A stretch of DNA of 64,000 nucleotides from Candidatus Nanoarchaeia archaeon. Its GTDB lineage: Archaea; Nanobdellota; Nanobdellia; Tiddalikarchaeales; Tiddalikarchaeaceae. The position numbers were made by a program, and so were the translations under genes. The stretch lies in assembly GCA_041652755.1 (NCBI GenBank), contig JBAZGS010000002.1:24516-88515 (forward strand). The letters are read 5' to 3'. Shown here in pieces: positions 23,014 through 32,872 of this stretch (positions within the stretch are counted from its first letter, which is position 1; each line of letters starts with the position of its first letter). The notes under the pieces are model-generated. The model did no database searches. It saw nothing but the letters and a program-made list of their open reading frames with translations, and was not told the DNA's origin.

Positions 23014-23073
23014 GATTTAATACTGCCAAGTGATAAAGTTTAAAAATACTATATTAGCTAATATATTATTAAT

Positions 23074-23145
23074 GCTCTGGTAGTCTAGTGGTTAGGACAT
23101 CAGCCTGTCACGCCGATAACCTGGGTTCGAATCCCAGCCAGGGCG
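23074..23145 (+). tRNA. tRNA-Asp (GTC)
   Basis: Acceptor GCTCTGG/CCAGGGC with one G-U pair, anticodon loop cTGTCAc, T-arm ctgggttcgaatcccag. Its 3' end is the attachment core of the adjacent element. Confidence 0.85.
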
Positions 23146-23197
23146 GGAATTCCATAGGTATCACTTAAGGTATGAACTAAAAAGAACAAATACTTAG

Positions 23198-24397
23198 GTG
23201 ATATACATGGATGAATTAGACATACATGACAGAAGAAAAAGATATGAAAAAACTGTCAAAAATATAGAAAAAGACAAAAATTTAACAACAAAAAATAAAG
23301 AATTTCTATTAAAATTAAAAGATGACTTATTTGCATTCGGCCTAAGTCTTGATAGGGTATTATTTTATCTGCATAGACTTAAAAGAATGGGCAAATGGCT
23401 TAACATGGATTTTGATAAAGCAACAATTGATGATCTAAAAAGATTAATTGTTGAACATGTTGAGAATGGAAGAGTTCCATCAACAGGAAAATCTTACACA
23501 GAAAATACTAAGAGAGATTTCAAACGATCCTTAAAGAGTTTTTACAAATGGATAGCAGAAATTCCATGGACAGAAATGAATTATCCAGACAAAGTCAAAT
23601 GGATTAACATAGGATTAAAACAATGCAAAGCAAGACTTCCGGATGACTTACTCTCAAAAGAAGATATAAACAAAATGATTGCTCATTCAGGAAATTTAAG
23701 AGACAAAGCAATGATTTCAACACTTTATGAAGGAGGTTTTAGAATAGGAGAATTATTAAATATTAAACTTAGGGATTTAAGCTTCACAGAATATGGAGTA
23801 AAAGTTATTGTTTCAGGAAAAACAGGAATGAGAACAGACTTATTAATAAATTCAACACAACTGCTTGCAACATGGATAGAAAATCATCCACTAAGAGACA
23901 AAAGAGACAGTTATTTATGGATTACTATGTCAACAAACAACAAAGGCAAAGGAATGAAATATGGAGGAGTAGCCAAGAGATTTAAAGAGATTGCAAAATT
24001 ATCAGAAATACAGAAAGATGTTAATCCTCATAACTTTCGACACAGCAGAGCATCAGAGTTAGCAAATAAATTAACAGAAGCTCAAATGTGCAACTATTTT
24101 GGATGGAGATTAGGCAGTAAAATGCCAGCAATCTATGTTCATCTCTCAGGAAGAGACATTGACGATGCCATTTTGAAGATGCATGGCTTAAAAAAGCATG
24201 AAGAAGAGCTGGAATTCACAGAAATCAAATGCCCAAGATGTAATCAAAAAAACAACTCAGCAAGCAAATACTGCTCATACTGTGGACTACTCGTTGATGA
24301 AAAAGAGGCCATAACAATGGTAAAAGTAGGAAATGACATGATACCTTACTCAGCAATCCAAGAAATGATAAAAGCAGAGATACAAAGAATGAAATAA
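23198..24397 (+). CDS. int: tyrosine recombinase/integrase
   Basis: Catalytic signature R...HNFRHS...Y (IYVHLS) and a C-terminal Zn ribbon CPRCN...CSYC. Confidence 0.85.
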   Translation: MIYMDELDIHDRRKRYEKTVKNIEKDKNLTTKNKEFLLKLKDDLFAFGLSLDRVLFYLHRLKRMGKWLNMDFDKATIDDLKRLIVEHVENGRVPSTGKSYTENTKRDFKRSLKSFYKWIAEIPWTEMNYPDKVKWINIGLKQCKARLPDDLLSKEDINKMIAHSGNLRDKAMISTLYEGGFRIGELLNIKLRDLSFTEYGVKVIVSGKTGMRTDLLINSTQLLATWIENHPLRDKRDSYLWITMSTNNKGKGMKYGGVAKRFKEIAKLSEIQKDVNPHNFRHSRASELANKLTEAQMCNYFGWRLGSKMPAIYVHLSGRDIDDAILKMHGLKKHEEELEFTEIKCPRCNQKNNSASKYCSYCGLLVDEKEAITMVKVGNDMIPYSAIQEMIKAEIQRMK

Positions 24398-24404
24398 TTT
24401 AATT

Positions 24405-25637
24405 TTATTCTAATGAATCAAATCTTATTTTTTCATATTTTTCTATTATTATATCTAATAATTCCTCAGGTGAATTAATATTGTCTAATTCTTTTTTTAA
24501 TATTTCAATAATTGAAATATTAACATGATGAAATGCTTTAATTTTAGTTAATTTACATATTTTTCCAAGATCCCCAGTTGTTCCTTCAACAGAAAATATA
24601 ATTCCAAATTTACAATTATGAAAAATTAATTTAGTTAAAAAATGATTTAATTGGCTAGAATTAACTTTTTCAGTTGTATTTTTGCATTCGCATAAAACAT
24701 ATTCTCCAAATAAATTTTTAAATGGATAAATTAGATTATTTCTAAAAGCTATATCTATTTGATACTCTTTTAATATATTATCACTAGGTCCGACATTTAT
24801 ATTTTTAATAACATTTATTTGATCCAAAGTACTTAATAAATAAGTACAACAATCTTCAAATCTTAATCCTTTTTCATTATTATCTTTTGAATTTTTAATC
24901 CAATTAGAAAAAATATTCAATAAATTTTTATTAAAACTATTTAAAAAACTAAATTTATTTTTTTCTTTTGAATAAAAATAAATAAAACTTTCTGGAAAAT
25001 AAATAAAATCTTTTAAACTATCATAATTTTTCCTAACAAATGAAACAATTTCATCTAATTTTTCTTGAGAAAAAAATTCTGTTTTAAGAACTAAATATGC
25101 TTTTCCCATATAACAAGTGGATATTTTTTTTTCTATTTCACTAACAATATCTTCAATAAATGCAAATAAAGTGTATTGTTTCAATTTTTCAACATTATTC
25201 TTTTTTCTATAAATCCAACCTAATTGATGTAATATAAGTCCTTTATGAATTCTTTCTTTCTTTTCTAATTCATAATCATTTAAAAATTTATAAATATCTT
25301 TATATGCATATTCTGCTAATAATAAAAATTCTGCTGATTTAAATTCATTATATAACATAAAATAAAAGTATCCAATAGTATTTGAAAGAATTAATATTTC
25401 TTTAGTCTCTTTTATTTCCTTTAATAAAGCAATAAAAGAATGAAAATAATCATAAGAATTATTTGCTTTTGCACAAGTTTCAATTAGTCTTTTCCCCTCA
25501 ACTGAATAATCTTTTGTAATTTCATTTAATTCTTTATCTAACTTATCTTTTAATCCTTGAGGAATAATTCCTTCATAATTATTTTTTTCAATAACATATT
25601 TCATCAATAATTTTGCTATTCCAAATTCATCAACCAT
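24405..25637 (-). CDS. Mrr-like PD-(D/E)xK nuclease domain protein with uncharacterised alpha-helical N-terminal region
   Basis: C-terminal RFEDCC ... QIDIAF ... GEYVLCECK ... FGIIFSVEG fits the Mrr_cat E/D/ExK core. The N-terminal roughly 270 aa have no recognised motif. Confidence 0.45.
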   Translation of the reverse strand: MVDEFGIAKLLMKYVIEKNNYEGIIPQGLKDKLDKELNEITKDYSVEGKRLIETCAKANNSYDYFHSFIALLKEIKETKEILILSNTIGYFYFMLYNEFKSAEFLLLAEYAYKDIYKFLNDYELEKKERIHKGLILHQLGWIYRKKNNVEKLKQYTLFAFIEDIVSEIEKKISTCYMGKAYLVLKTEFFSQEKLDEIVSFVRKNYDSLKDFIYFPESFIYFYSKEKNKFSFLNSFNKNLLNIFSNWIKNSKDNNEKGLRFEDCCTYLLSTLDQINVIKNINVGPSDNILKEYQIDIAFRNNLIYPFKNLFGEYVLCECKNTTEKVNSSQLNHFLTKLIFHNCKFGIIFSVEGTTGDLGKICKLTKIKAFHHVNISIIEILKKELDNINSPEELLDIIIEKYEKIRFDSLE

Positions 25638-25729
25638 TAAAATTTAAATAATTTTTAACTATAAAAATATACCTTATTTAATAAAATTTCATAGACTGAA
25701 AAATATATTATTTTATTGATGTTTTTTCT

Positions 25730-26263
25730 TTAATAATCATTTTTTTTTACAAAAGAATCAAACATAATTAAATCAATATTAATATCTTTAAAGAATAAAT
25801 CAAAAAAATAATTAGCTTCTTTTTTTATTTCTTTATTACCTATTTTTGTAAAAAGCCATAAATATTTTGGAAAAGCATCAAATAAATATTTTAATCCTTC
25901 TTCATAAGGTAATCCATCTCTAGTTTTATATTTTAAATAAAAAACTTTATCTGATTCCTTTTTCTCAATTATTTTTTTTAAAAAAATTTCTGCAATAGGT
26001 ATTAATTTATCCCATTTTTTTATAATATTTAGTTTAATACATTTGCTTATAAATCCATTATAATTTATTTCATAAGTTATTGGTTTTCCATCATTTTTCT
26101 TAATTAATCCTTTTTTAGTCAAAATTCTTAATTCTTTATTAATATTATCTATATCTCTATTTCTTATTTTTTTTAATTCTAATGCAGATAAAGGTTTATG
26201 AATTAATTCAATAAAATCATTAAAATATTCTTTACTTCTATAAGGATATTTTACTTCTTCCAT
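25730..26263 (-). CDS. winged-helix domain protein
   Basis: LSALELKKIRNRDIDNINKELRILTKKGLIKK...ITYEIN is a wHTH pattern. Lies upstream of, and co-oriented with, the Mrr-like gene. Confidence 0.35.
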   Translation of the reverse strand: MEEVKYPYRSKEYFNDFIELIHKPLSALELKKIRNRDIDNINKELRILTKKGLIKKNDGKPITYEINYNGFISKCIKLNIIKKWDKLIPIAEIFLKKIIEKKESDKVFYLKYKTRDGLPYEEGLKYLFDAFPKYLWLFTKIGNKEIKKEANYFFDLFFKDINIDLIMFDSFVKKNDY

Positions 26264-26316
26264 AGGTAATTTTATACCCCAAAATAATATATAAAAATGT
26301 TGATTTTTGATTATTT

Positions 26317-26475
26317 ATGACAATTATTACAAAGAATATTTGTTTAGATGAAGATTTATTTAATAAATCAAAACAAATATGTAAAAGTACAGGACGAACA
26401 TTTTCTGGATTCGTGAGATTCCTTATTGAGAGGGAAATGGAAAAAGATGAAGGGAGTGGGAATAATGGAAATTAA
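26317..26475 (+). CDS. ribbon-helix-helix (CopG-like) protein, 52 aa
   Basis: Hand-translated MTIITKNICLDEDLFNKSKQICKSTGRTFSGFVRFLIEREMEK, with the RHH pattern of beta-strand, then helix, GR, then helix. Confidence 0.4.
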   Translation: MTIITKNICLDEDLFNKSKQICKSTGRTFSGFVRFLIEREMEKDEGSGNNGN

Positions 26476-26573
26476 ATCTTCTTTTAAAAACTGGTCTGAT
26501 TTAATGGATTTTGTTAAGTTAGAAGCCAAAGAGCAATTAATTAAACAAATTAAGAAAAAAGAGGTTAAATCTA

Positions 26574-26792
26574 ATGATGACAAAGGCACAAATTGATTTT
26601 GAATCTTGTAATTTTAGGGATGAATTAATCCTTTTTTTAATTAAACAAATGAATTGTGCAAGTCTTGAAACTTTAACTATTGTATCAGGGATTACTAAAG
26701 AAAAATTAACCAAAGTAATAAAAAGATTACAACAAAGAAAATTAATCAAAATTGCTACAACAATTAGAACAAATTATTATGGGGTGGTATAA
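26574..26792 (+). CDS. winged-helix DNA-binding protein
   Basis: ASLETLTIVSGITKEKLTKVIKRLQQRKLIKI is an HTH plus wing pattern. Confidence 0.4.
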   Translation: MMTKAQIDFESCNFRDELILFLIKQMNCASLETLTIVSGITKEKLTKVIKRLQQRKLIKIATTIRTNYYGVV

Positions 26793-27311
26793 ATGAATGA
26801 ATCAGATGAATTAATAAATAAAAAATTAGATTTAATTTTACAAAAAGTAATCAATATAGAAGAAAAACAAAGTTTGCGCATTAATGATACTAAAAAACAA
26901 CAATGTGAATTAATTAAAGAAAAACTTGAAGAAAATTCGGTTATTTCAAGTAATGGAATAAGTGATTTATTTAATTTTACTTATGCAGAGTATACTTATA
27001 GGTTAATTAAAACGTTTTCTAAACTTTATCCTAAAATATGTAAACTTATAAATGGAAAAAAAGGAAAAAATCCAAATATTATCCTAAATAAAAAGTCAAA
27101 TATATACTTAGCACTTAATTATCTTTATTCCAATTGTCCAAAAATTAATGATTACTTTAGTTTAAAGACTATTGAAATGCAATTCAATTTTAAATCTAAT
27201 GATTTAACTGTGTTTAAAGAAATCTTATTTCATTATCTTATTGATGAATGGAAATGTGGAGAAGATAATCATATAATTGTGCGTAAAAAAATAATAAGTG
27301 AAGTGTTTTAA
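26793..27311 (+). CDS. hypothetical protein
   Basis: 172-aa ORF with a start overlapping the upstream stop (taaATG). Confidence 0.3.
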   Translation: MNESDELINKKLDLILQKVINIEEKQSLRINDTKKQQCELIKEKLEENSVISSNGISDLFNFTYAEYTYRLIKTFSKLYPKICKLINGKKGKNPNIILNKKSNIYLALNYLYSNCPKINDYFSLKTIEMQFNFKSNDLTVFKEILFHYLIDEWKCGEDNHIIVRKKIISEVF

Positions 27312-27550
27312 TAAATATTATTAACAAAAGAGTTACAAATTATATTTTTTTTTTAATGCTCCCAATTATTAATAATAAATATTAACAGTATTGTTGTTTA
27401 TTTATTGTATTTTATTATTATATTATATATAATATATTTGTAACTTAATTGTTATAATATTAGTTTAACATAAACAAACAAAATTTAATTAAATTTATTA
27501 AAAAAATGCTGCTAAAATAGAAAGAAACGACAGACAAAAATCCAGTATAA

Positions 27551-27645
27551 GCAAGAGAGTAAGCAAGAGAAAATTAATAATCATAGCTCGAGGCATAGCC
27601 CGAGAAATTGTCCATAGCGAGAGCCATAGCATGAGAAAATGATTT
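27551..27645. repeat. cluster of short direct repeats (2x gcaagaga; 4x CATAGC-N-GAG units) in a 387-bp AT-rich intergenic region
   Basis: gcaagaga at 27551 and 27563. catagc at 27582, 27594, 27613 and 27625, each followed by (c/t)cgag or gagag. Confidence 0.5.
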
Positions 27646-27698
27646 TTTTTTTATCAAATATATTTGAGAAATAATATATTAAATAATCATATGCAACA

Positions 27699-28172
27699 TT
27701 ATTTATAATATCTTAATTTTATATTATAAGTTATTGTATTTGGAATTTCAAATAACAAATCTATATCTTCTGATTCTAAAGGTTGTAAATAATCTGAAAA
27801 TACATCTGAATAGCCGTTTAATACATATTTTGAGTAATCATTTTGACTAATCCAGTCATTATTTATACAATCATATATATTTCCATGATCATCTAATAAC
27901 TTAAATTTATCTGAGTTAATATATTTTGAGGTTTTTCCTATATTTTTTATAGTAATTTCAACAATCGCAACATTTTGTTTTATACTATTAGAATAATATT
28001 TATTTAATACTGTTCCTGTGGGTGAAGCTGTTGAAGATTCTAAACGAATGGATAAATTATTTAATTCTTGTGTTTCTAAAGGAGAAATATCAATATATTT
28101 TTTTGAATCCGAATCTGATACTAATCCAATTAAAATTATAATTACAACTATCCAAAAAATACTAATTTTCAT
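27699..28172 (-). CDS. secreted/membrane-anchored protein (DUF4352-like fold suspected)
   Basis: N-terminal TM/signal MKISIFWIVVIIILIGLVS, then a beta-rich domain. Confidence 0.3.
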   Translation of the reverse strand: MKISIFWIVVIIILIGLVSDSDSKKYIDISPLETQELNNLSIRLESSTASPTGTVLNKYYSNSIKQNVAIVEITIKNIGKTSKYINSDKFKLLDDHGNIYDCINNDWISQNDYSKYVLNGYSDVFSDYLQPLESEDIDLLFEIPNTITYNIKLRYYK

Positions 28173-28238
28173 TATTTTAACGCCTCTTTAACGTATTCTT
28201 AACCTATTCAAATAAAAACAACACGTTTTAAAAACGTT

Positions 28239-28490
28239 ATGGATTGGTTAAAATTAGGTAAAGTTAAAGGAAGTAAAAATAAGAAAATAATAATTAATGC
28301 TTTAAACAAGCCAAAAACACCAACAGAACTATCCCAAGAGCTAAAAATAGCAAGATCAACATGCAGTAGCACACTTTTAGAACTTGAAACAATGCAATTA
28401 GTTAAATGCTTAACCCCAGAACTAAAACTAGGAAGATTATACCAACTAACAGAAGAAGGAGAAGAAATAAAGAAAGAAATTAAATTATAA
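28239..28490 (+). CDS. winged-helix transcriptional regulator (ArsR/MarR-like)
   Basis: TPTELSQELKIARSTCSSTLLELETMQLVK. Sits directly upstream of the three-gene operon. Confidence 0.45.
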   Translation: MDWLKLGKVKGSKNKKIIINALNKPKTPTELSQELKIARSTCSSTLLELETMQLVKCLTPELKLGRLYQLTEEGEEIKKEIKL

Positions 28491-28532
28491 TGTTAACCTT
28501 TTAAACTTATAACTTTTAATATTATACTAAAC

Positions 28533-29639
28533 ATGTTATCTAAAAAAAATAAAAAATTGAATCCTCAAAAAAAAGGAAAAAAAGGTGAAAATAATTCAAT
28601 TAAAGCTTTAAAAGTATTATTTGAACAATTTTCTAGAATTAGTTCAATAAGAAAATATGAATCTGGTTTTCAGGGAGGAAAAGATATTAAAACATTTGCT
28701 TTTTTCAAAAAAAATAATTTTTTAGGTATTGTTGGAGATAAAAATTTAAAATGGTTTTTTGAAGTTAAACATTATGAAAGTAAATTAAATCCAGAAAAAG
28801 TTGTTTATAAAATTCATCAAGTTAAAGCTTCTAATTTAGAAATTGATTGTTTTTGTTTATTTTCTCCTAAAGAAGATATTCATGGTATATTGGAAGATAG
28901 TTTATCAGAAAAAAAAGTGTTAGATAATCCTGAATATCCATTTAAAATTGTATTATGGACTCCCTCTCAAAATATTAAAAGTAAATTATCTTGTTTTCCT
29001 GAAGTATATAAGGAAATTTATGATGAAGAAAGTAATATTTCAGATGATGATAAAAAAGAAATATTAAATAATTGGATCGAAGAAATTTATAAACAAACAG
29101 AAGAAGGAAAAAAAATACGTGAAGATTTTGTTACTAAATTTAAAGGAATAAATCCTATTTGGATTCCTGAAAGTATAAATTATGCACAAAATATAATTAT
29201 TGATGATGAAGGTCAAAAAACATTTTCTGAAAAACAATCAATATTAGAACAAAAACTTCGTATGGGAGGTATAAATGAATACCAAGATATTCTTAAAGCA
29301 AAAAGAAATAGAATATTAAGTGAAGGAATAAGAAGAAAATATAAAAAATCGGATGAAATTATTTTTATGGAATTGACCTCTATTAAATATGAATTAGAAA
29401 ATTTTTGTCTTGATTTAGAAAAAAATATTTTAGAAAAAGAATCAACTAATGAAGCAAGATTATTTTTAATAGAATTTTTTAATAAACTTGAAGAATTTAA
29501 ACAAAAATGTAAAAACAAAGAAATAATAGAAAAATTACCTAATTATTACTTTGATGGACAAATGTATGAAATAACTTCAGAATGCTTATTAAGTTTATCA
29601 AAAAAATGGTTAAAAGAAATAAAAGGTATATTAAAATGA
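28533..29639 (+). CDS. PD-(D/E)xK nuclease-domain protein (LmuA/DdmA-like candidate effector)
   Basis: N-terminal KALKVLFEQF ... GIVGD ... FFEVKHY, the E / D / ExK arrangement. The stop overlaps the next gene's ATG (ATGA). Confidence 0.45.
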   Translation: MLSKKNKKLNPQKKGKKGENNSIKALKVLFEQFSRISSIRKYESGFQGGKDIKTFAFFKKNNFLGIVGDKNLKWFFEVKHYESKLNPEKVVYKIHQVKASNLEIDCFCLFSPKEDIHGILEDSLSEKKVLDNPEYPFKIVLWTPSQNIKSKLSCFPEVYKEIYDEESNISDDDKKEILNNWIEEIYKQTEEGKKIREDFVTKFKGINPIWIPESINYAQNIIIDDEGQKTFSEKQSILEQKLRMGGINEYQDILKAKRNRILSEGIRRKYKKSDEIIFMELTSIKYELENFCLDLEKNILEKESTNEARLFLIEFFNKLEEFKQKCKNKEIIEKLPNYYFDGQMYEITSECLLSLSKKWLKEIKGILK

Positions 29640-30127
29640 AAGAAATTGATAATACTAAATTTTTAGAACTTGCTCAAATGATTTTATTATTAGGAAATTC
29701 ACAAAAAAATATAATTTATGAAAAACATAAATTCATGACTTTTTTATTTTTTATTAAAAATCCACTTTATTTAGGTAAATTATGTGAAAAAATACATCCG
29801 GAATTCTCAAAAAATATTCATTTAAATCATACTGAAGAATATAACTTATTATATGATATTGAAAGAATAAGTGTTTGGAATAGTAAAAATGATTTAAACA
29901 TTGCATATCTATTAGGTAAAGGATTAGTGAATGTTGAATTAACTGATAAAGGATATTCTTTTTCTTTAACCTTAGAGGGGTTAAAATTATTTAAATCATT
30001 AAAAAATGATAAATCTATGCAAATAGAAAATATTAGATCTAAAATTATAAACAATATTTTTAAAAAAGAATCTTTTAATGAAATAAAAGGTATAATAATT
30101 GATAATTTTAAGGAGTTAAATCTATGA
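29636..30127 (+). CDS. small alpha-helical protein (LmuC/DdmB-like position), 163 aa from the coupled ATG
   Basis: ATGA overlaps at both ends (29636-29639 and 30124-30127). No motif recognised. The ORF track's earlier start at 29582 is probably not used. Confidence 0.35.
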   Translation: MKEIDNTKFLELAQMILLLGNSQKNIIYEKHKFMTFLFFIKNPLYLGKLCEKIHPEFSKNIHLNHTEEYNLLYDIERISVWNSKNDLNIAYLLGKGLVNVELTDKGYSFSLTLEGLKLFKSLKNDKSMQIENIRSKIINNIFKKESFNEIKGIIIDNFKELNL

Positions 30128-32052
30128 ATAAAAATCCTTATATTCAAATAAAAAGATTAAAAGTGGAAGGTTTACATAAATTTGATAAATCTTTTAAAAA
30201 AGGTTTACATATTTTAGTTGGTAATAATAACTCTTGTGGAAAAAGTTTGTTTATTAAATTAATTGATTTTGCTTTAGGTGATGATGGTAATGATTTAAAG
30301 GAGTATGGTATTTTAAAAGATTGTTCTTTTTTTTATGCAGAATTAGAGGTAAATAATGAAACTTTAACAATAAAAAGAAATTTATATATTATTGATTCAA
30401 CAATTGAATTATTTTATAATAAAACTATTCAAGAAATATTAACTTCATCAATTATACCAGAATCTATATCTTACTCTGATTATCAAAAATTATTATTTAA
30501 AAAATTAACAAATTTTGATTATATTCCTACTATTAGTTCAAAAGGTAAAAAAGTTAGTATAGGTTTTCCTCATTTTTCAAATCTTTTTTATTTAAATCAA
30601 GGAGTAGCAGCAGGCCAATTATTTAGGTATAGTGATATTTATTTTCCAAATTATTTGAAAAAAAAAGTATTAAGTCTTTTCTTGAATACAAATGAAATAA
30701 AAAAATCATCTGATGAAATTGAATTAGGTAATTTAAAAGAACAAGTTAAAAATTCTATTGACCAATTAAATACAAAAAGATCTTTTTTTAATTCAAAATT
30801 TAATATAGATAATTATTTTGCTGAAATTGAAAATAAAAATAATATATTAAAAGAAATTGACACTTTAAAAGATAATTTAAATAATATAAATCAAGAGGCT
30901 TTAATTCAAATTGATTTACCTGTTCAAGAAAAAGATACTTTATATTTTTTAAAGAAAAGATTAGAGGAAATAAATAATTTAATATTTAATTGTAATACTA
31001 ATATTAAACAAACAACTAAGATATTAAATGATTATTCAGAAGAAATTTCTAAAACTGAAAAAAATATAACTTCATTTAATTTAATGAAAAAATTTGATAT
31101 ATCTATTTGTCCTGAATGCAATAAAAAAATAATTAAACAACTTAATAATAATTGTCCATTATGTAAAGAAAAATTAGATGAGGAAAAATCATTAAATAAT
31201 TATTTTGATAATAATATGAAATATTTAAGTTATTTAAAAGGTGCACTAAAAGATTCTGTTGATGTTATAAATAATGATAAAGAAAATGTAAATAAATTAA
31301 TAAAAGAAAGAGAAGAATTAATTAATGAAATAAATATTAAAGAAAAAAAATTAAATGATTTTATTAAAACAAATAAATTACCTATTTTAGATAAAATTTC
31401 TGAATTAAGTTATGAAATTTCAAAAAGAGAAGAAAAATTGAATTTTATAAATAAAAATATTGAAATATTAGAATCTTTCAAACATGAAGACGAAAGAATT
31501 GAAGATTTAAAAAACAAAATTAAAATTTTAAACAATAAAATTAAAGAGATAGAATCCGATTTAATTAATAAAAGTAGAGAAGAAAAGTTATTATCTATTT
31601 TAAATAATAATTTTAATTCTTTTTTTAATAATATTAATTATCCTTCATTTGAAAAAGCAAATTTGAATGAAAATTTTGATATAACTATTACTAACAATAG
31701 AGATGGTATCCAAAATTTAAATAAAATTACTTCCTCAAGTAATAGAATAATAATAAGATTAGGTTTATTTTATTCATTATTAAAAACTTCTTTAGAAAAT
31801 GATAATATAAATTATCCAAAGTTAATTTATTTAGATTCACCTAGAGATCAAGAATTAACTTGGGAGAGATTTAGTAATTCATTATTGTCTTTTAAAAGAT
31901 TATTAGACAATTCTGACGTTGAAGGTCAAGTATTTATTACTGTAGTAGAAGATGCTAAAAATGTTTTTGAAGGAGAATATGAATCTCTAAATGATAATGT
32001 ATTTATGAGAATTGAAGATAAATCTAATTTAAGATTATTAAGAAAAAATTAA
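30124..32052 (+). CDS. SMC/Rad50-like coiled-coil ABC ATPase (LmuB/DdmC-like)
   Basis: N-terminal LHILVGNNNSCGKSLFIKLIDFALG (Walker A in Rad50/RecF-type context), a roughly 400-aa N/K/E-rich predicted coiled coil, a central CPECN-x12-CPLCK knuckle and C-terminal KLIYLDSPRDQEL Walker B/D-loop. aaggag RBS lies 8 nt upstream. Confidence 0.55.
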   Translation: MNKNPYIQIKRLKVEGLHKFDKSFKKGLHILVGNNNSCGKSLFIKLIDFALGDDGNDLKEYGILKDCSFFYAELEVNNETLTIKRNLYIIDSTIELFYNKTIQEILTSSIIPESISYSDYQKLLFKKLTNFDYIPTISSKGKKVSIGFPHFSNLFYLNQGVAAGQLFRYSDIYFPNYLKKKVLSLFLNTNEIKKSSDEIELGNLKEQVKNSIDQLNTKRSFFNSKFNIDNYFAEIENKNNILKEIDTLKDNLNNINQEALIQIDLPVQEKDTLYFLKKRLEEINNLIFNCNTNIKQTTKILNDYSEEISKTEKNITSFNLMKKFDISICPECNKKIIKQLNNNCPLCKEKLDEEKSLNNYFDNNMKYLSYLKGALKDSVDVINNDKENVNKLIKEREELINEINIKEKKLNDFIKTNKLPILDKISELSYEISKREEKLNFINKNIEILESFKHEDERIEDLKNKIKILNNKIKEIESDLINKSREEKLLSILNNNFNSFFNNINYPSFEKANLNENFDITITNNRDGIQNLNKITSSSNRIIIRLGLFYSLLKTSLENDNINYPKLIYLDSPRDQELTWERFSNSLLSFKRLLDNSDVEGQVFITVVEDAKNVFEGEYESLNDNVFMRIEDKSNLRLLRKN

Positions 32053-32070
32053 TTTATTTTTAAAAGACGT

Positions 32071-32712
32071 TTATTTCCAATAAATTATACAAAATAAAAT
32101 TGATAAAATTAAAACAAAAATACTTATTTTTATCTTATTTTTAAATCTAAATTTTTTATTCTTTCCAAAAGTTATAAATGAAATAGATTTTAAGTAAAAA
32201 TAATTAATTAATATAGACATACTCATAAAAATTGAAATACTTCCTAATGAACTACTAATTTCTTTTGAAACAAAAAATAAAGTATAAATTGTATTTATCA
32301 ATGAAAAAATTAATACTAAAATTTCTATAAAAAATATAAAATTTAACCAATTTCCTAAATAAAATTCTTTTTTTGACTTATTGATTTCTCTTTGAATTAT
32401 ATAAGGAAAAAAAGTATATATAATAAGCGCAATTATTCCATATCCAAAACTAGTTATTAATTCTCCTGGTGGGGGATTATTAAATAATATAAAATTTATA
32501 ATATTTATACTAAATAGGAGTGGAACTATAAGACAAAATAAAGCTAAGAATATTAAGAGTAAGTTTCCAGATTCTTTTAAATTTTTAATTGTAACATATT
32601 TACCTTTCTTAAAAAATAGAATATACATAAAATAAGTATAAATTGCCAGAAATAAAAATATGTTAGTGTTGGGTAAAAAATTTAAAATTATTGATATAAT
32701 ATCTATACTCAT
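32071..32712 (-). CDS. polytopic membrane protein
   Basis: 6-7 TM segments; convergent with the operon and inside the element. Confidence 0.35.
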   Translation of the reverse strand: MSIDIISIILNFLPNTNIFLFLAIYTYFMYILFFKKGKYVTIKNLKESGNLLLIFLALFCLIVPLLFSINIINFILFNNPPPGELITSFGYGIIALIIYTFFPYIIQREINKSKKEFYLGNWLNFIFFIEILVLIFSLINTIYTLFFVSKEISSSLGSISIFMSMSILINYFYLKSISFITFGKNKKFRFKNKIKISIFVLILSILFCIIYWK

Positions 32713-32872
32713 ATTTGATTTAATTCACCTTTGACTAAAAAATATTTGTATTTTTTATGTATATTTTAAATATAATACTTATTAAGTAATTTTTTAAATC
32801 ATGTGCTCATTGTTTATATTAAGTTTAATGCTTAAGTAATACCCTAGAACCCAAATCCCAGCCAGGGCGCAC

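Follow-up and report, generated by a model that had tools for sequence, protein, structure and literature searches.

The nearest nuclease kin of the protein described here are the Mrr Type IV restriction endonucleases (PF04471; structural relative AF1548, PDB 1y88). Classical Mrr carries an N-terminal winged-helix DNA reader (Mrr_N), and in Mrr and the MspJI/AspBHI family it is generally the N-terminal domain that reads DNA or its modification, while in FokI, R.BspD6I and the Type ISP enzymes (LlaBIII) cleavage is carried out by a module joined through a tether to others that serve DNA recognition, methyl transfer or translocation. Shedu nucleases belong to the DUF4263 family, not to Mrr_cat, and Avs proteins are longer than 1000 aa. 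Anti-phage STAND proteins combine an Mrr-type nuclease effector with TPR repeats (PMC9122126). Only such STAND-containing architectures were found in the literature, with no description of a TPR-Mrr fusion that lacks an NTPase. We describe such a fusion here, encoded within a 64,000-nucleotide stretch of a Candidatus Nanoarchaeia genome (the whole stretch analysed, hereafter "the window"), whose features are as follows.

24405..25637, minus strand: TPR-Mrr gene, an ORF of 410 aa (stop codon included in the span)
25458..25637, minus strand: N-terminal stretch of ~60 residues, helical in a low-confidence prediction and poorly conserved (pLDDT 44-58; alignment A2 gappy here)
24891..25457, minus strand: TPR-like alpha-helical solenoid, residues ~61-249 (from PDB profile matches and the predicted model)
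24408..24890, minus strand: C-terminal Mrr_cat-type PD-(D/E)xK nuclease domain, residues ~250-410, including the C-terminal helix
24855..24857, minus strand: codon of E261, active-site glutamate on helix alpha1, as in Mrr-type enzymes
24753..24755, minus strand: codon of D295, catalytic aspartate of core strand 2
24681..24689, minus strand: codons of E317-C318-K319 (gaa-tgc-aaa), forming the catalytic ExK motif of core strand 3

The protein has the same two building blocks as the Avs/AVAST and NLR-like STAND proteins, an Mrr-type effector and TPR, but it has no NTPase or oligomerisation module (by Pfam and PADLOC, with residues 1-270 helical), its domain order is reversed relative to Avs, with the TPR N-terminal and the nuclease C-terminal, it is much smaller (~400 aa), and it is matched by no PADLOC Avs or NLR model. 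Compared with classical Mrr, the N-terminus is a solenoid of ~200 residues with an HKG/IED/PE signature rather than a winged helix, and the window protein itself lies below Pfam detection, while in contrast to FokI, R.BspD6I and LlaBIII its only other domain is TPR-like. It resembles Shedu (SduA), which we compare from general knowledge, in being one polypeptide with a C-terminal PD-(D/E)xK nuclease behind a non-catalytic, likely regulatory N-terminal domain, and in being located in defence islands, but the TPR domain is unrelated and there is no PADLOC Shedu match.

The 410-aa ORF and a co-oriented 177-aa ORF (25730..26263) lie exactly where a preliminary description of this DNA had placed them. 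In the NCBI annotation only the last 317 codons of the former are included, labelled as a hypothetical protein, while a protein from a Candidatus Nanoarchaeia MAG (P0001) is 100% identical to the 410-aa product. Since members of the family are 370-420 aa long and their alignment to the window protein begins at about residue 50-110, the long start is favoured. The copy in the window is strongly AT-rich and has diverged far, with at most 39% identity to any relative, and no match to it was obtained in Pfam, NCBIfam or PADLOC even at E<=1. Interferon-gamma appeared when PDB sequences were searched by single-protein phmmer with the 410-aa protein, and was rejected, as the matches from that search were spurious only.

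As no profile matches the window protein directly, its membership in Mrr_cat is assigned by transitive homology. Its C-terminus matches a 176-aa protein (BLASTP E 6e-11) that itself scores 32.6 bits on Mrr_cat against a cut-off of 21 bits, and PF04471 is matched by 54 of 74 homologues (best E 6.4e-11). AlphaFold yielded a useless model from the single sequence (pLDDT 39) and a confident one only when supplied with an MSA of 74 sequences (pLDDT 85, pTM 0.83), in which the nuclease domain has a restriction-endonuclease-like alpha/beta fold. The window protein retains an intact catalytic tetrad, E261, D295, E317 and K319, whose conservation reaches 99-100% across the 146-151 representatives that could be aligned at these positions: E261 is a glutamate in 144/146, D295 an aspartate in 149/149 (invariant in A2), E317 is conserved in 151/151 and K319 in 150/151. 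The motifs that had been picked out from the sequence by eye (FE261D, QID295IAF, LCE317CK319 and G345IIFSVEG) are genuine and fall on the most conserved columns of the family, and the conserved C-terminal helix bears a further motif, KYExxRFD. The C-terminus is thus, as first proposed, an Mrr-type PD-(D/E)xK nuclease, with the fold predicted at high confidence and the tetrad strongly conserved, and we infer that the protein would cleave DNA. The divergence of the window copy might nevertheless reflect a loss of function, although all of its catalytic residues are intact.

The first 270 residues had been said to match nothing recognisable, which holds for Pfam, but the region is a TPR-like solenoid. 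A profile search of the PDB gave matches to consensus TPR proteins, and the N-terminal domain has the marks of the TPR superfamily, namely tandem antiparallel helix-turn-helix repeats and similarity to TPR profiles or structures; in the AF2 model residues 1-270 are helical throughout and lack a P-loop and a beta-sheet core. Within the solenoid the family signature comprises H131-K132-G133, E162-D163 and P215-E216. The suggestion of a sensor domain fused to the nuclease therefore survives in part: the N-terminal domain looks non-catalytic and could be a sensor, but it is not truly unrecognised, being TPR-like. The conserved HKG/IED/PE residues could instead belong to an interface within the molecule and not to a sensor site.

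One may ask whether the protein is simply a solitary Type IV-like, DNA-directed restriction enzyme whose helical N-terminal domain reads DNA or a modification and needs no protein trigger, by analogy with the N-terminal readers of its nuclease kin. We regard this as unlikely, since the N-terminal domain is TPR-like and contains no winged helix, SRA, PUA or other known modified-DNA reader, since no DNA-binding domain was detected with Pfam in any of 74 family members, and since several homologues sit inside m6A-type restriction-modification (R-M) operons, an awkward fit to methyl-dependent cleavage.

The family is far larger than rapid searches indicate: a word-indexed search under-reports it, giving 2 matches (3 with a profile), as opposed to 448 representatives at E<=1e-3 by exhaustive phmmer. 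Among the top 152 representatives, 117 have both the TPR-like and the nuclease module; the Mrr subfamily module also occurs alone, fused to HsdM in cyanobacteria (loci L049 and L074) and fused to a STAND/AAA_35 NTPase (L041). In curated phage and plasmid collections only relatives of the C-terminal module were present, and viral contigs yielded 5 relatives, 1 of them near full-length. Current defence catalogues miss the family: the window protein has no match in PADLOC v2, NCBIfam lacks a model, and so does Pfam for the N-terminal domain; a PADLOC candidate model was matched, weakly, by only 4 of 74 relatives. Loci were retrieved with a tighter sub-alignment (A3); because its search pattern is located in the nuclease core, most of the proteins retrieved had the C-terminal module only.

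About 13 of the loci were informative, and in these guilt by association points to a defence role. Two homologues lie within Type I loci, one arranged as HsdR-[homologue]-SEC-C-HsdS-HsdM and the other as PDC-S18-HsdR-HsdM-[homologue]-HsdS with 4-bp gene overlaps, and a third lies in a Type III locus, MTase-Res-[homologue], with overlapping stop and start codons. Others adjoin Gabija (GajA-GajB-DEDDh-[homologue]), or an MvaI/BcnI REase together with an HNH protein, while further relatives are found by tRNA-Arg and integrases, one with a tmRNA gene directly upstream. Neighbours were housekeeping or uninformative in 3-4 of these 13 or so loci (LeuA/ADH in L011; TIM/RidA on one side in L089; also L010 and L016), but a core-genome setting, which would have argued against the anti-mobile-element proposal, was not seen, as the contexts of the relatives are patchy, non-syntenic and of island type. 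The TPR-Mrr family is thus large, uncharacterised, horizontally mobile and recurrent in R-M and defence loci.

The three independent homologues within R-M operons, with reading frames that overlap or nearly abut, and the Rosetta-stone-type link provided by the HsdM fusions, raise the alternative that these proteins are accessory nucleases or adaptors that dock through their TPR onto R-M complexes (HsdM/HsdR or Mod/Res) and extend or back up restriction. However, operons of Type I R-M systems are known to harbour unrelated defence genes, such as prrC, at high frequency, and embedding is for that reason no proof of physical partnership; moreover, no homologue of HsdR, HsdM, HsdS, Mod or Res is encoded in the 64-kb window, and the other homologues adjoin Gabija, integrases or housekeeping genes. 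As an account of the window protein we consider such docking very unlikely.

In the window itself, the gene resides on a mobile island inserted at a tRNA gene:

23073..23146, plus strand: tRNA-Asp(GTC), the integration target (ARAGORN)
23130-23145, plus strand: attL, the 3' end of tRNA-Asp (repeat search)
23198..24397, plus strand: tyrosine integrase of 399 aa whose C-terminal part is a zinc ribbon
28239-28490: gene of an 83-aa protein, homologous to the winged-helix (wHTH) protein of locus L089
28533..32052, plus strand: Lamassu-like system, a separate module of the same island (PADLOC)
32854..32869, plus strand: attR, where 16 nt of the tRNA-Asp 3' end recur exactly (AATCCCAGCCAGGGCG), bounding an island of ~9.7 kb

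All the hallmarks of a tRNA-integrative element are present, namely a tyrosine integrase by a tRNA gene, a distal boundary at which the tRNA 3' end is directly repeated, and an atypical composition: the 16-nt repeat has 2 matches in the window against 0.00 expected (100 shuffles), and GC content is ~20% within the island and ~32% outside. The integrase that had been noted beside the nuclease is real (PF00589, E 1.7e-21), and the two genes are convergent, with stop codons 7 bp apart. The Lamassu-like genes encode an LmuA candidate (368 aa), LmuC (181 aa) and LmuB (642 aa), for which PADLOC gave 1.9e-45 for LmuB, 4.2e-10 for LmuC and no match for the LmuA candidate. Like the Mrr-type LmuA of some such systems, TPR-Mrr is an Mrr-type nuclease on an island with LmuB and LmuC, but it is encoded on the other strand, ~2.9 kb away from the operon (25637 to 28533), whose LmuA position is already occupied by a gene (28533-29639). 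Furthermore, no PADLOC LmuA model matches TPR-Mrr at E<=1, and family members mostly occur without Lamassu. For its position, its strand and the missing LmuA match we reject it as the LmuA effector of this system. The anti-mobile-element layout of the preliminary description is borne out, the gene being on an integrase-bearing island with Lamassu, while a function in defence or abortive infection is what gene context suggests.

A location directly beside the integrase, inside an att-bounded element, is also what one would expect if the gene served the element, through addiction or stabilisation, exclusion of competitors or processing of element DNA, or if it were decaying, non-functional cargo; relatives by integrases or at tRNA/tmRNA sites and the high divergence of the window copy agree with this. 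Yet many relatives lie outside recognisable elements, the window copy retains the catalytic and N-terminal motifs that are strongly conserved family-wide, and to exclude competing elements amounts in practice to defence. We give these readings very little credence indeed.

Taken together, we consider it fairly probable that TPR-Mrr is a standalone anti-mobile-element nuclease, composed of a TPR solenoid and Mrr_cat and carried as cargo of the 9.7-kb element. Under this reading, a single polypeptide would have its TPR-like solenoid rigidly packed on the C-terminal Mrr_cat-type nuclease with its E-D-ExK active site, and would be carried by the element inserted at tRNA-Asp, beside Lamassu. The TPR domain may serve as a recognition, docking or autoinhibitory module. 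Its ligand would be a partner protein of the invader or of the host, or, with lower probability, some feature of a nucleic acid, and binding would allow the Mrr domain to cleave DNA in a Mg2+-dependent manner. A bolder generalisation, which we put forward only tentatively and think rather unlikely, is that TPR-Mrr proteins are minimal, NTPase-free pattern-recognition nucleases, in which the TPR solenoid of ~200 residues would bind an invader protein directly or plug into R-M complexes (HsdM) and allosterically unleash a FokI/Mrr-like cleavage domain, with HKG/IED/PE as the ligand or switch site; they might then be a stripped-down counterpart of Avs/NLR immunity that mobile elements have dispersed among Bacteria, CPR and DPANN Archaea.

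If a defence role holds, these proteins would constitute a compact (~400 aa), widespread single-gene family of immune nucleases missed by defence catalogues, and would show that a restriction-type nuclease can be paired with TPR-based recognition in proteins that have no STAND ATPase. The sparse picture of DPANN defence islands would also be extended: genomes of this group are tiny, yet the 9.7-kb element is devoted largely to Lamassu and the TPR-Mrr nuclease. The homologues repeatedly embedded in R-M operons of Type I and Type III and the HsdM-Mrr fusions, in turn, suggest a directly testable hypothesis of cooperation between R-M systems and accessory nucleases.

The remaining question is the part played by the gene immediately upstream:

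25638..25729, no strand: AT-rich spacer of 92 bp between the two genes (sequence)
25730..26263, minus strand: orphan protein of 177 aa, its N-terminal part giving a weak signal of a TrmB/ArsR-like winged helix at residues ~20-65 (Pfam TrmB)

The preliminary description took the two genes to form a module; in such a module the winged-helix protein would be an obligate partner of the nuclease, as repressor, antitoxin or sensor. They are indeed adjacent, co-oriented and 92 bp apart, but the winged helix is weakly supported, as the TrmB match at residues 20-65 (E 3.4e-4) scores 20.8 bits, below the cut-off of 25.6 bits. HTH genes do occur beside relatives: in L099 a small XRE-HTH gene lies 60 bp upstream, and in L089, the closest relative, an 88-aa wHTH gene adjoins. 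The latter, however, is convergent and resembles the 83-aa island protein (28239-28490; E 9e-20) rather than the 177-aa protein (E 0.08, not similar); the L089 locus does not continue into a Lamassu gene. Most relatives have no HTH neighbour, and the loci around relatives reveal no conserved partner of any kind. The 177-aa protein matched only itself in 5.8 billion clusters, by a word-indexed search that is not very sensitive to remote homologues, had no PDB sequence match and has no homologue in any of the 99 loci fetched around family relatives, where the pairing, when checked, was not conserved; the two-gene module is accordingly not upheld, and we consider it highly improbable. The protein is probably an element-specific regulator instead of a conserved partner, and at most a local transcriptional regulator of the element. 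A scan for sigma-70 promoters and terminators, a bacterial-type model inappropriate for an archaeon, gave fewer sites than in shuffled sequences. The spacer could hold a separate promoter: TATA-like tracts are located ~25-30 nt upstream of the ATG, and it is possible, judging from these letters, that they belong to an independent archaeal promoter of the leaderless type.

The two genes of the preliminary description, a 410-aa protein with a putative Mrr nuclease domain and a 177-aa winged-helix protein taken as its partner in a defence or abortive-infection module, are found in the window sequence exactly where they had been placed, co-oriented and separated by an AT-rich spacer of 92 bp. The source is a MAG of Candidatus Nanoarchaeia (DPANN). 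The last 16 nt of a tRNA-Asp gene close to the pair (AATCCCAGCCAGGGCG, 23130-23145) are repeated exactly at 32854-32869, which makes two matches in the window where shuffles predict 0.00, and GC content is about 20% between the two repeats compared with about 32% in the flanks. Since the tRNA is accompanied by an integrase, by exact 16-nt repeats and by a drop in GC, we regard the stretch as an integrated element of about 9.7 kb, with these features:

23073-32869, complete integrative element, about 9.7 kb (tRNA, integrase, att repeats, GC)
23073-23146, tRNA-Asp(GTC) (tRNA gene call)
23198-24397, tyrosine integrase directly after tRNA-Asp (PF00589, E 1.7e-21)
24405..25637, minus strand, 410-aa protein, here TPR-Mrr (ORF scan)
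25730..26263, minus strand, 177-aa protein (ORF scan)
within 26317-27311, plus strand, 52-aa CopG/RHH_5 protein (E 7.6e-6)
within 26317-27311, plus strand, 72-aa MarR/Sulfolobus-pRN-like wHTH protein (E 2.6e-4 / 1.8e-3)
within 26317-27311, plus strand, 172-aa orphan
27699-28172, minus strand, DUF4352 protein of 157 aa, hydrophobic segment at its N-terminus
28239-28490, plus strand, 83-aa HxlR/ArsR-like wHTH protein, just 5' of the Lamassu genes
28533-32052, plus strand, Lamassu-like LmuA?/LmuC/LmuB operon (PADLOC)
32071-32712, minus strand, multi-pass membrane protein of 213 aa, strongly hydrophobic, at the attR end

The TPR-Mrr gene resides on this mobile island, convergent with the integrase. 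The cargo of the ~9.7 kb consists largely of defence genes and small regulators, and none of it was recognisable as a replication or virion gene. The integrase is intact and carries a C-terminal zinc ribbon. The three genes at 26317-27311, which diverge from the 177-aa gene, look like the regulatory cassette of a plasmid, a likeness that suggests an integrative plasmid as the origin of the island. Judging from its sequence the DUF4352 protein is probably secreted or surface-anchored, and together with the 213-aa membrane protein it could serve as a surface or exclusion factor. In the Lamassu operon, PADLOC recognised LmuB (642 aa, 1.9e-45) and LmuC (181 aa, 4.2e-10), and the 368-aa gene ahead of them in the LmuA position, which has no Pfam or PADLOC match, may encode a novel LmuA effector. 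TPR-Mrr itself was rejected as LmuA on position, strand and lack of a model match. That a DPANN archaeon carries Lamassu on an islet integrated at a tRNA gene deserves attention in its own right.

The window protein matched nothing in Pfam, NCBIfam or PADLOC, even at E<=1, and a word-indexed homology search with it returned a single distant relative. An exhaustive HMMER search brought the family to 448 cluster representatives at E<=1e-3 (65 of them at E<=1e-10), most being 370-420 aa long and aligned to query residues ~105-408. Among the top 150 representatives, the predicted catalytic tetrad is essentially fixed: E261 is kept in 144/146, D295 in 149/149, E317 in 151/151 and K319 in 150/151. 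In A2, an alignment of 74 family sequences, D295, E317 and G345 are invariant, and conservation reaches 90% or more at E261, K319, K132, G133, E162, D163 and P215. Pfam Mrr_cat (PF04471) is matched by 54 of the 74 A2 members (best E 6.4e-11), and the last 161 residues of the window protein match (E 6e-11) a 176-aa stand-alone protein whose own Mrr_cat score of 32.6 bits exceeds the 21-bit cut-off. Single-sequence AlphaFold gave no usable model (pLDDT 39); with A2 as the MSA, pLDDT was 85 and pTM 0.83, residues 100-410 being mostly above 90. Foldseek was concordant with weaker statistics (AspBHI, EcoT38I, Rpb5, CdiA-CT), its viral matches being "restriction endonuclease" and "Mrr-like" proteins, and likenesses of the nuclease domain also include Can2, Card1, HindIII, EcoT38I, AspBHI and NucS. 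The Mrr_cat matches of homologs, the conserved tetrad, the confident model and Foldseek together speak against a C-terminus lacking the PD-(D/E)xK fold, so that the Mrr-type C-terminus proposed earlier stands; transitive homology, motif and predicted fold place the catalytic domain in the Mrr_cat family.

A predicted TPR-like domain packs against this intact, strongly conserved active site. Neither a P-loop nor a beta-sheet core was found in the N-terminal domain, and therefore it conceals no STAND or AAA NTPase. Its family signature, covered by no Pfam model, comprises H131 (76/110 representatives), K132 (93/110), G133 (90/110), E162 (95/118), D163 (112/118), P215 (111/124) and E216 (106/125); these residues may line either a groove for a ligand or the face that contacts the nuclease. 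The NCBI entry for the gene (WC393_01225, hypothetical protein, 317 aa) begins at Met94, 93 codons 3' of the first ATG, omitting window positions 25359-25637 (minus strand). Because family members have 370-420 aa, with 65-115 residues preceding the conserved HKG motif, we favour the long reading frame; part of the TPR domain is probably missing from the deposited version.

The architecture follows a familiar sensor-effector logic. Classical Mrr has an Mrr_N winged helix, which TPR-Mrr does not possess, and this identity was rejected, as were an Avs or NLR-like protein (no NTPase) and Shedu (a different nuclease family, no PADLOC match). Mrr_cat-STAND-TPR proteins have been described (PMC9122126); our literature search yielded no paper on a TPR-Mrr fusion without an NTPase. 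NCBIfam has no model for the family, and PADLOC v2 coverage is marginal, with PDC-S02 weakly matched by 4/74 members. It is plausible that TPR-Mrr represents an experimentally unstudied family of single-gene defence nucleases.

Full-length relatives occur in Candidatus Daviesbacteria (CPR), Gammaproteobacteria, Actinomycetes, Anaerolineae, Polyangiaceae and Gemmatimonadaceae, a patchy spread without synteny. Five relatives were found in 2.9 million viral contigs, just one near full-length, and curated phage and plasmid collections matched the C-terminal module only. Gene orders around relatives, with TPR-Mrr standing for the family member, are:

L001, L002: HsdR-TPR-Mrr-SEC-C-HsdS-HsdM
L090: PDC-S18-HsdR-HsdM-TPR-Mrr-HsdS, with 4-bp overlaps
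L017, 816-8801, Polyangiaceae MAG: operon of Type III-like MTase (1016 aa, PADLOC Type III 2.6e-157), ResIII/S24, TPR-Mrr, stop/start overlapping
L091: GajA (3.3e-41), GajB (4.2e-74), DEDDh exonuclease, TPR-Mrr
L009: MvaI/BcnI REase, HNH protein, TPR-Mrr, unannotated 155-aa ORF, DUF5677
L096: tRNA-Arg, PKD protein, TPR-Mrr, integrases
L019: tmRNA gene immediately 5' of TPR-Mrr
L099: small XRE-HTH gene 5' of TPR-Mrr
L011, L089, L010, L016: housekeeping or uninformative neighbours

Thus about half of the informative loci adjoin recognised defence systems, and several more lie at island hotspots; the linkage to R-M and Gabija loci is recurrent. In the 1220-aa protein of L017, a ResIII helicase is joined with a LexA-like (S24) peptidase domain, an uncommon fusion.

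The Mrr module of the same subfamily recurs in HsdM fusions, a STAND/AAA_35 fusion and the stand-alone ~176-aa protein, in the manner of a portable effector module. In cyanobacteria (L049 6513-8498, L074 6477-8501) it forms the C-terminus of HsdM (HsdM_N + N6_Mtase), by sequence a Type I methyltransferase subunit with its own nuclease; in an Acidobacteriota MAG (L041 6864-8474) it is fused to an AAA_35/nSTAND2 NTPase (536 aa in all) without obvious repeats. At L018 (7068-8507), L021 (7054-8519) and ~25 more genome loci in many bacteria, including Acinetobacter, Flavobacteriia and Bacillus, the stand-alone ~176-aa Mrr_cat protein is directly preceded by one of ~300 aa whose C-terminus shows a weak likeness to Mrr (in one case there is also a weak nucleoside 2-deoxyribosyltransferase-like match). 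This tandem pair appears uncharacterised, and its layout is reminiscent of heterodimeric BspD6I-type nucleases.

We favour an autonomous defence or anti-MGE nuclease, in which the TPR domain would gate DNA cleavage by recognising a protein that belongs to the invader or to the host R-M machinery. A rival reading of TPR-Mrr is an accessory nuclease of R-M complexes, as relatives embedded in R-M operons and the HsdM-Mrr fusions would suggest, but the 64-kb window as a whole contains no homolog of Type I or Type III R-M genes. Another is a Type IV-like enzyme, directed at DNA or its modifications, whose helical domain reads DNA, and a further one is a gene that is selfish to the element or decaying. 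The family is large, compact and uncatalogued, found repeatedly inside R-M operons and here on a DPANN defence islet.

While a sensor-nuclease in a defence/MGE context is supported, the winged-helix partnership, and with it a nuclease dependent on the wHTH protein, is not. The 177-aa protein has a weak TrmB-like winged helix (residues 20-65, E 3.4e-4, under the Pfam cut-off), no relative among PDB sequences, itself as sole match in a word-indexed search of 5.8 billion clusters, and no homolog among the ORFs of the 99 loci retrieved with relatives of TPR-Mrr. Next to the closest of these relatives (P0004, 39% identity) lies a convergent 88-aa wHTH gene whose product is not homologous to the 177-aa protein (E 0.08), but matches the 83-aa wHTH protein at 28239-28490 (38% identity, E 9e-20). 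Because the supposed partner is an orphan and the relative's wHTH matches another island gene, a two-gene module is not supported, and the reading that suits the 177-aa protein best is a regulator specific to this element. The 83-aa protein's homolog lies on an unrelated metagenomic contig (L089 5059-5325, minus strand), and this small wHTH regulator may move together with these defence genes in low-GC genomes of DPANN-like type.
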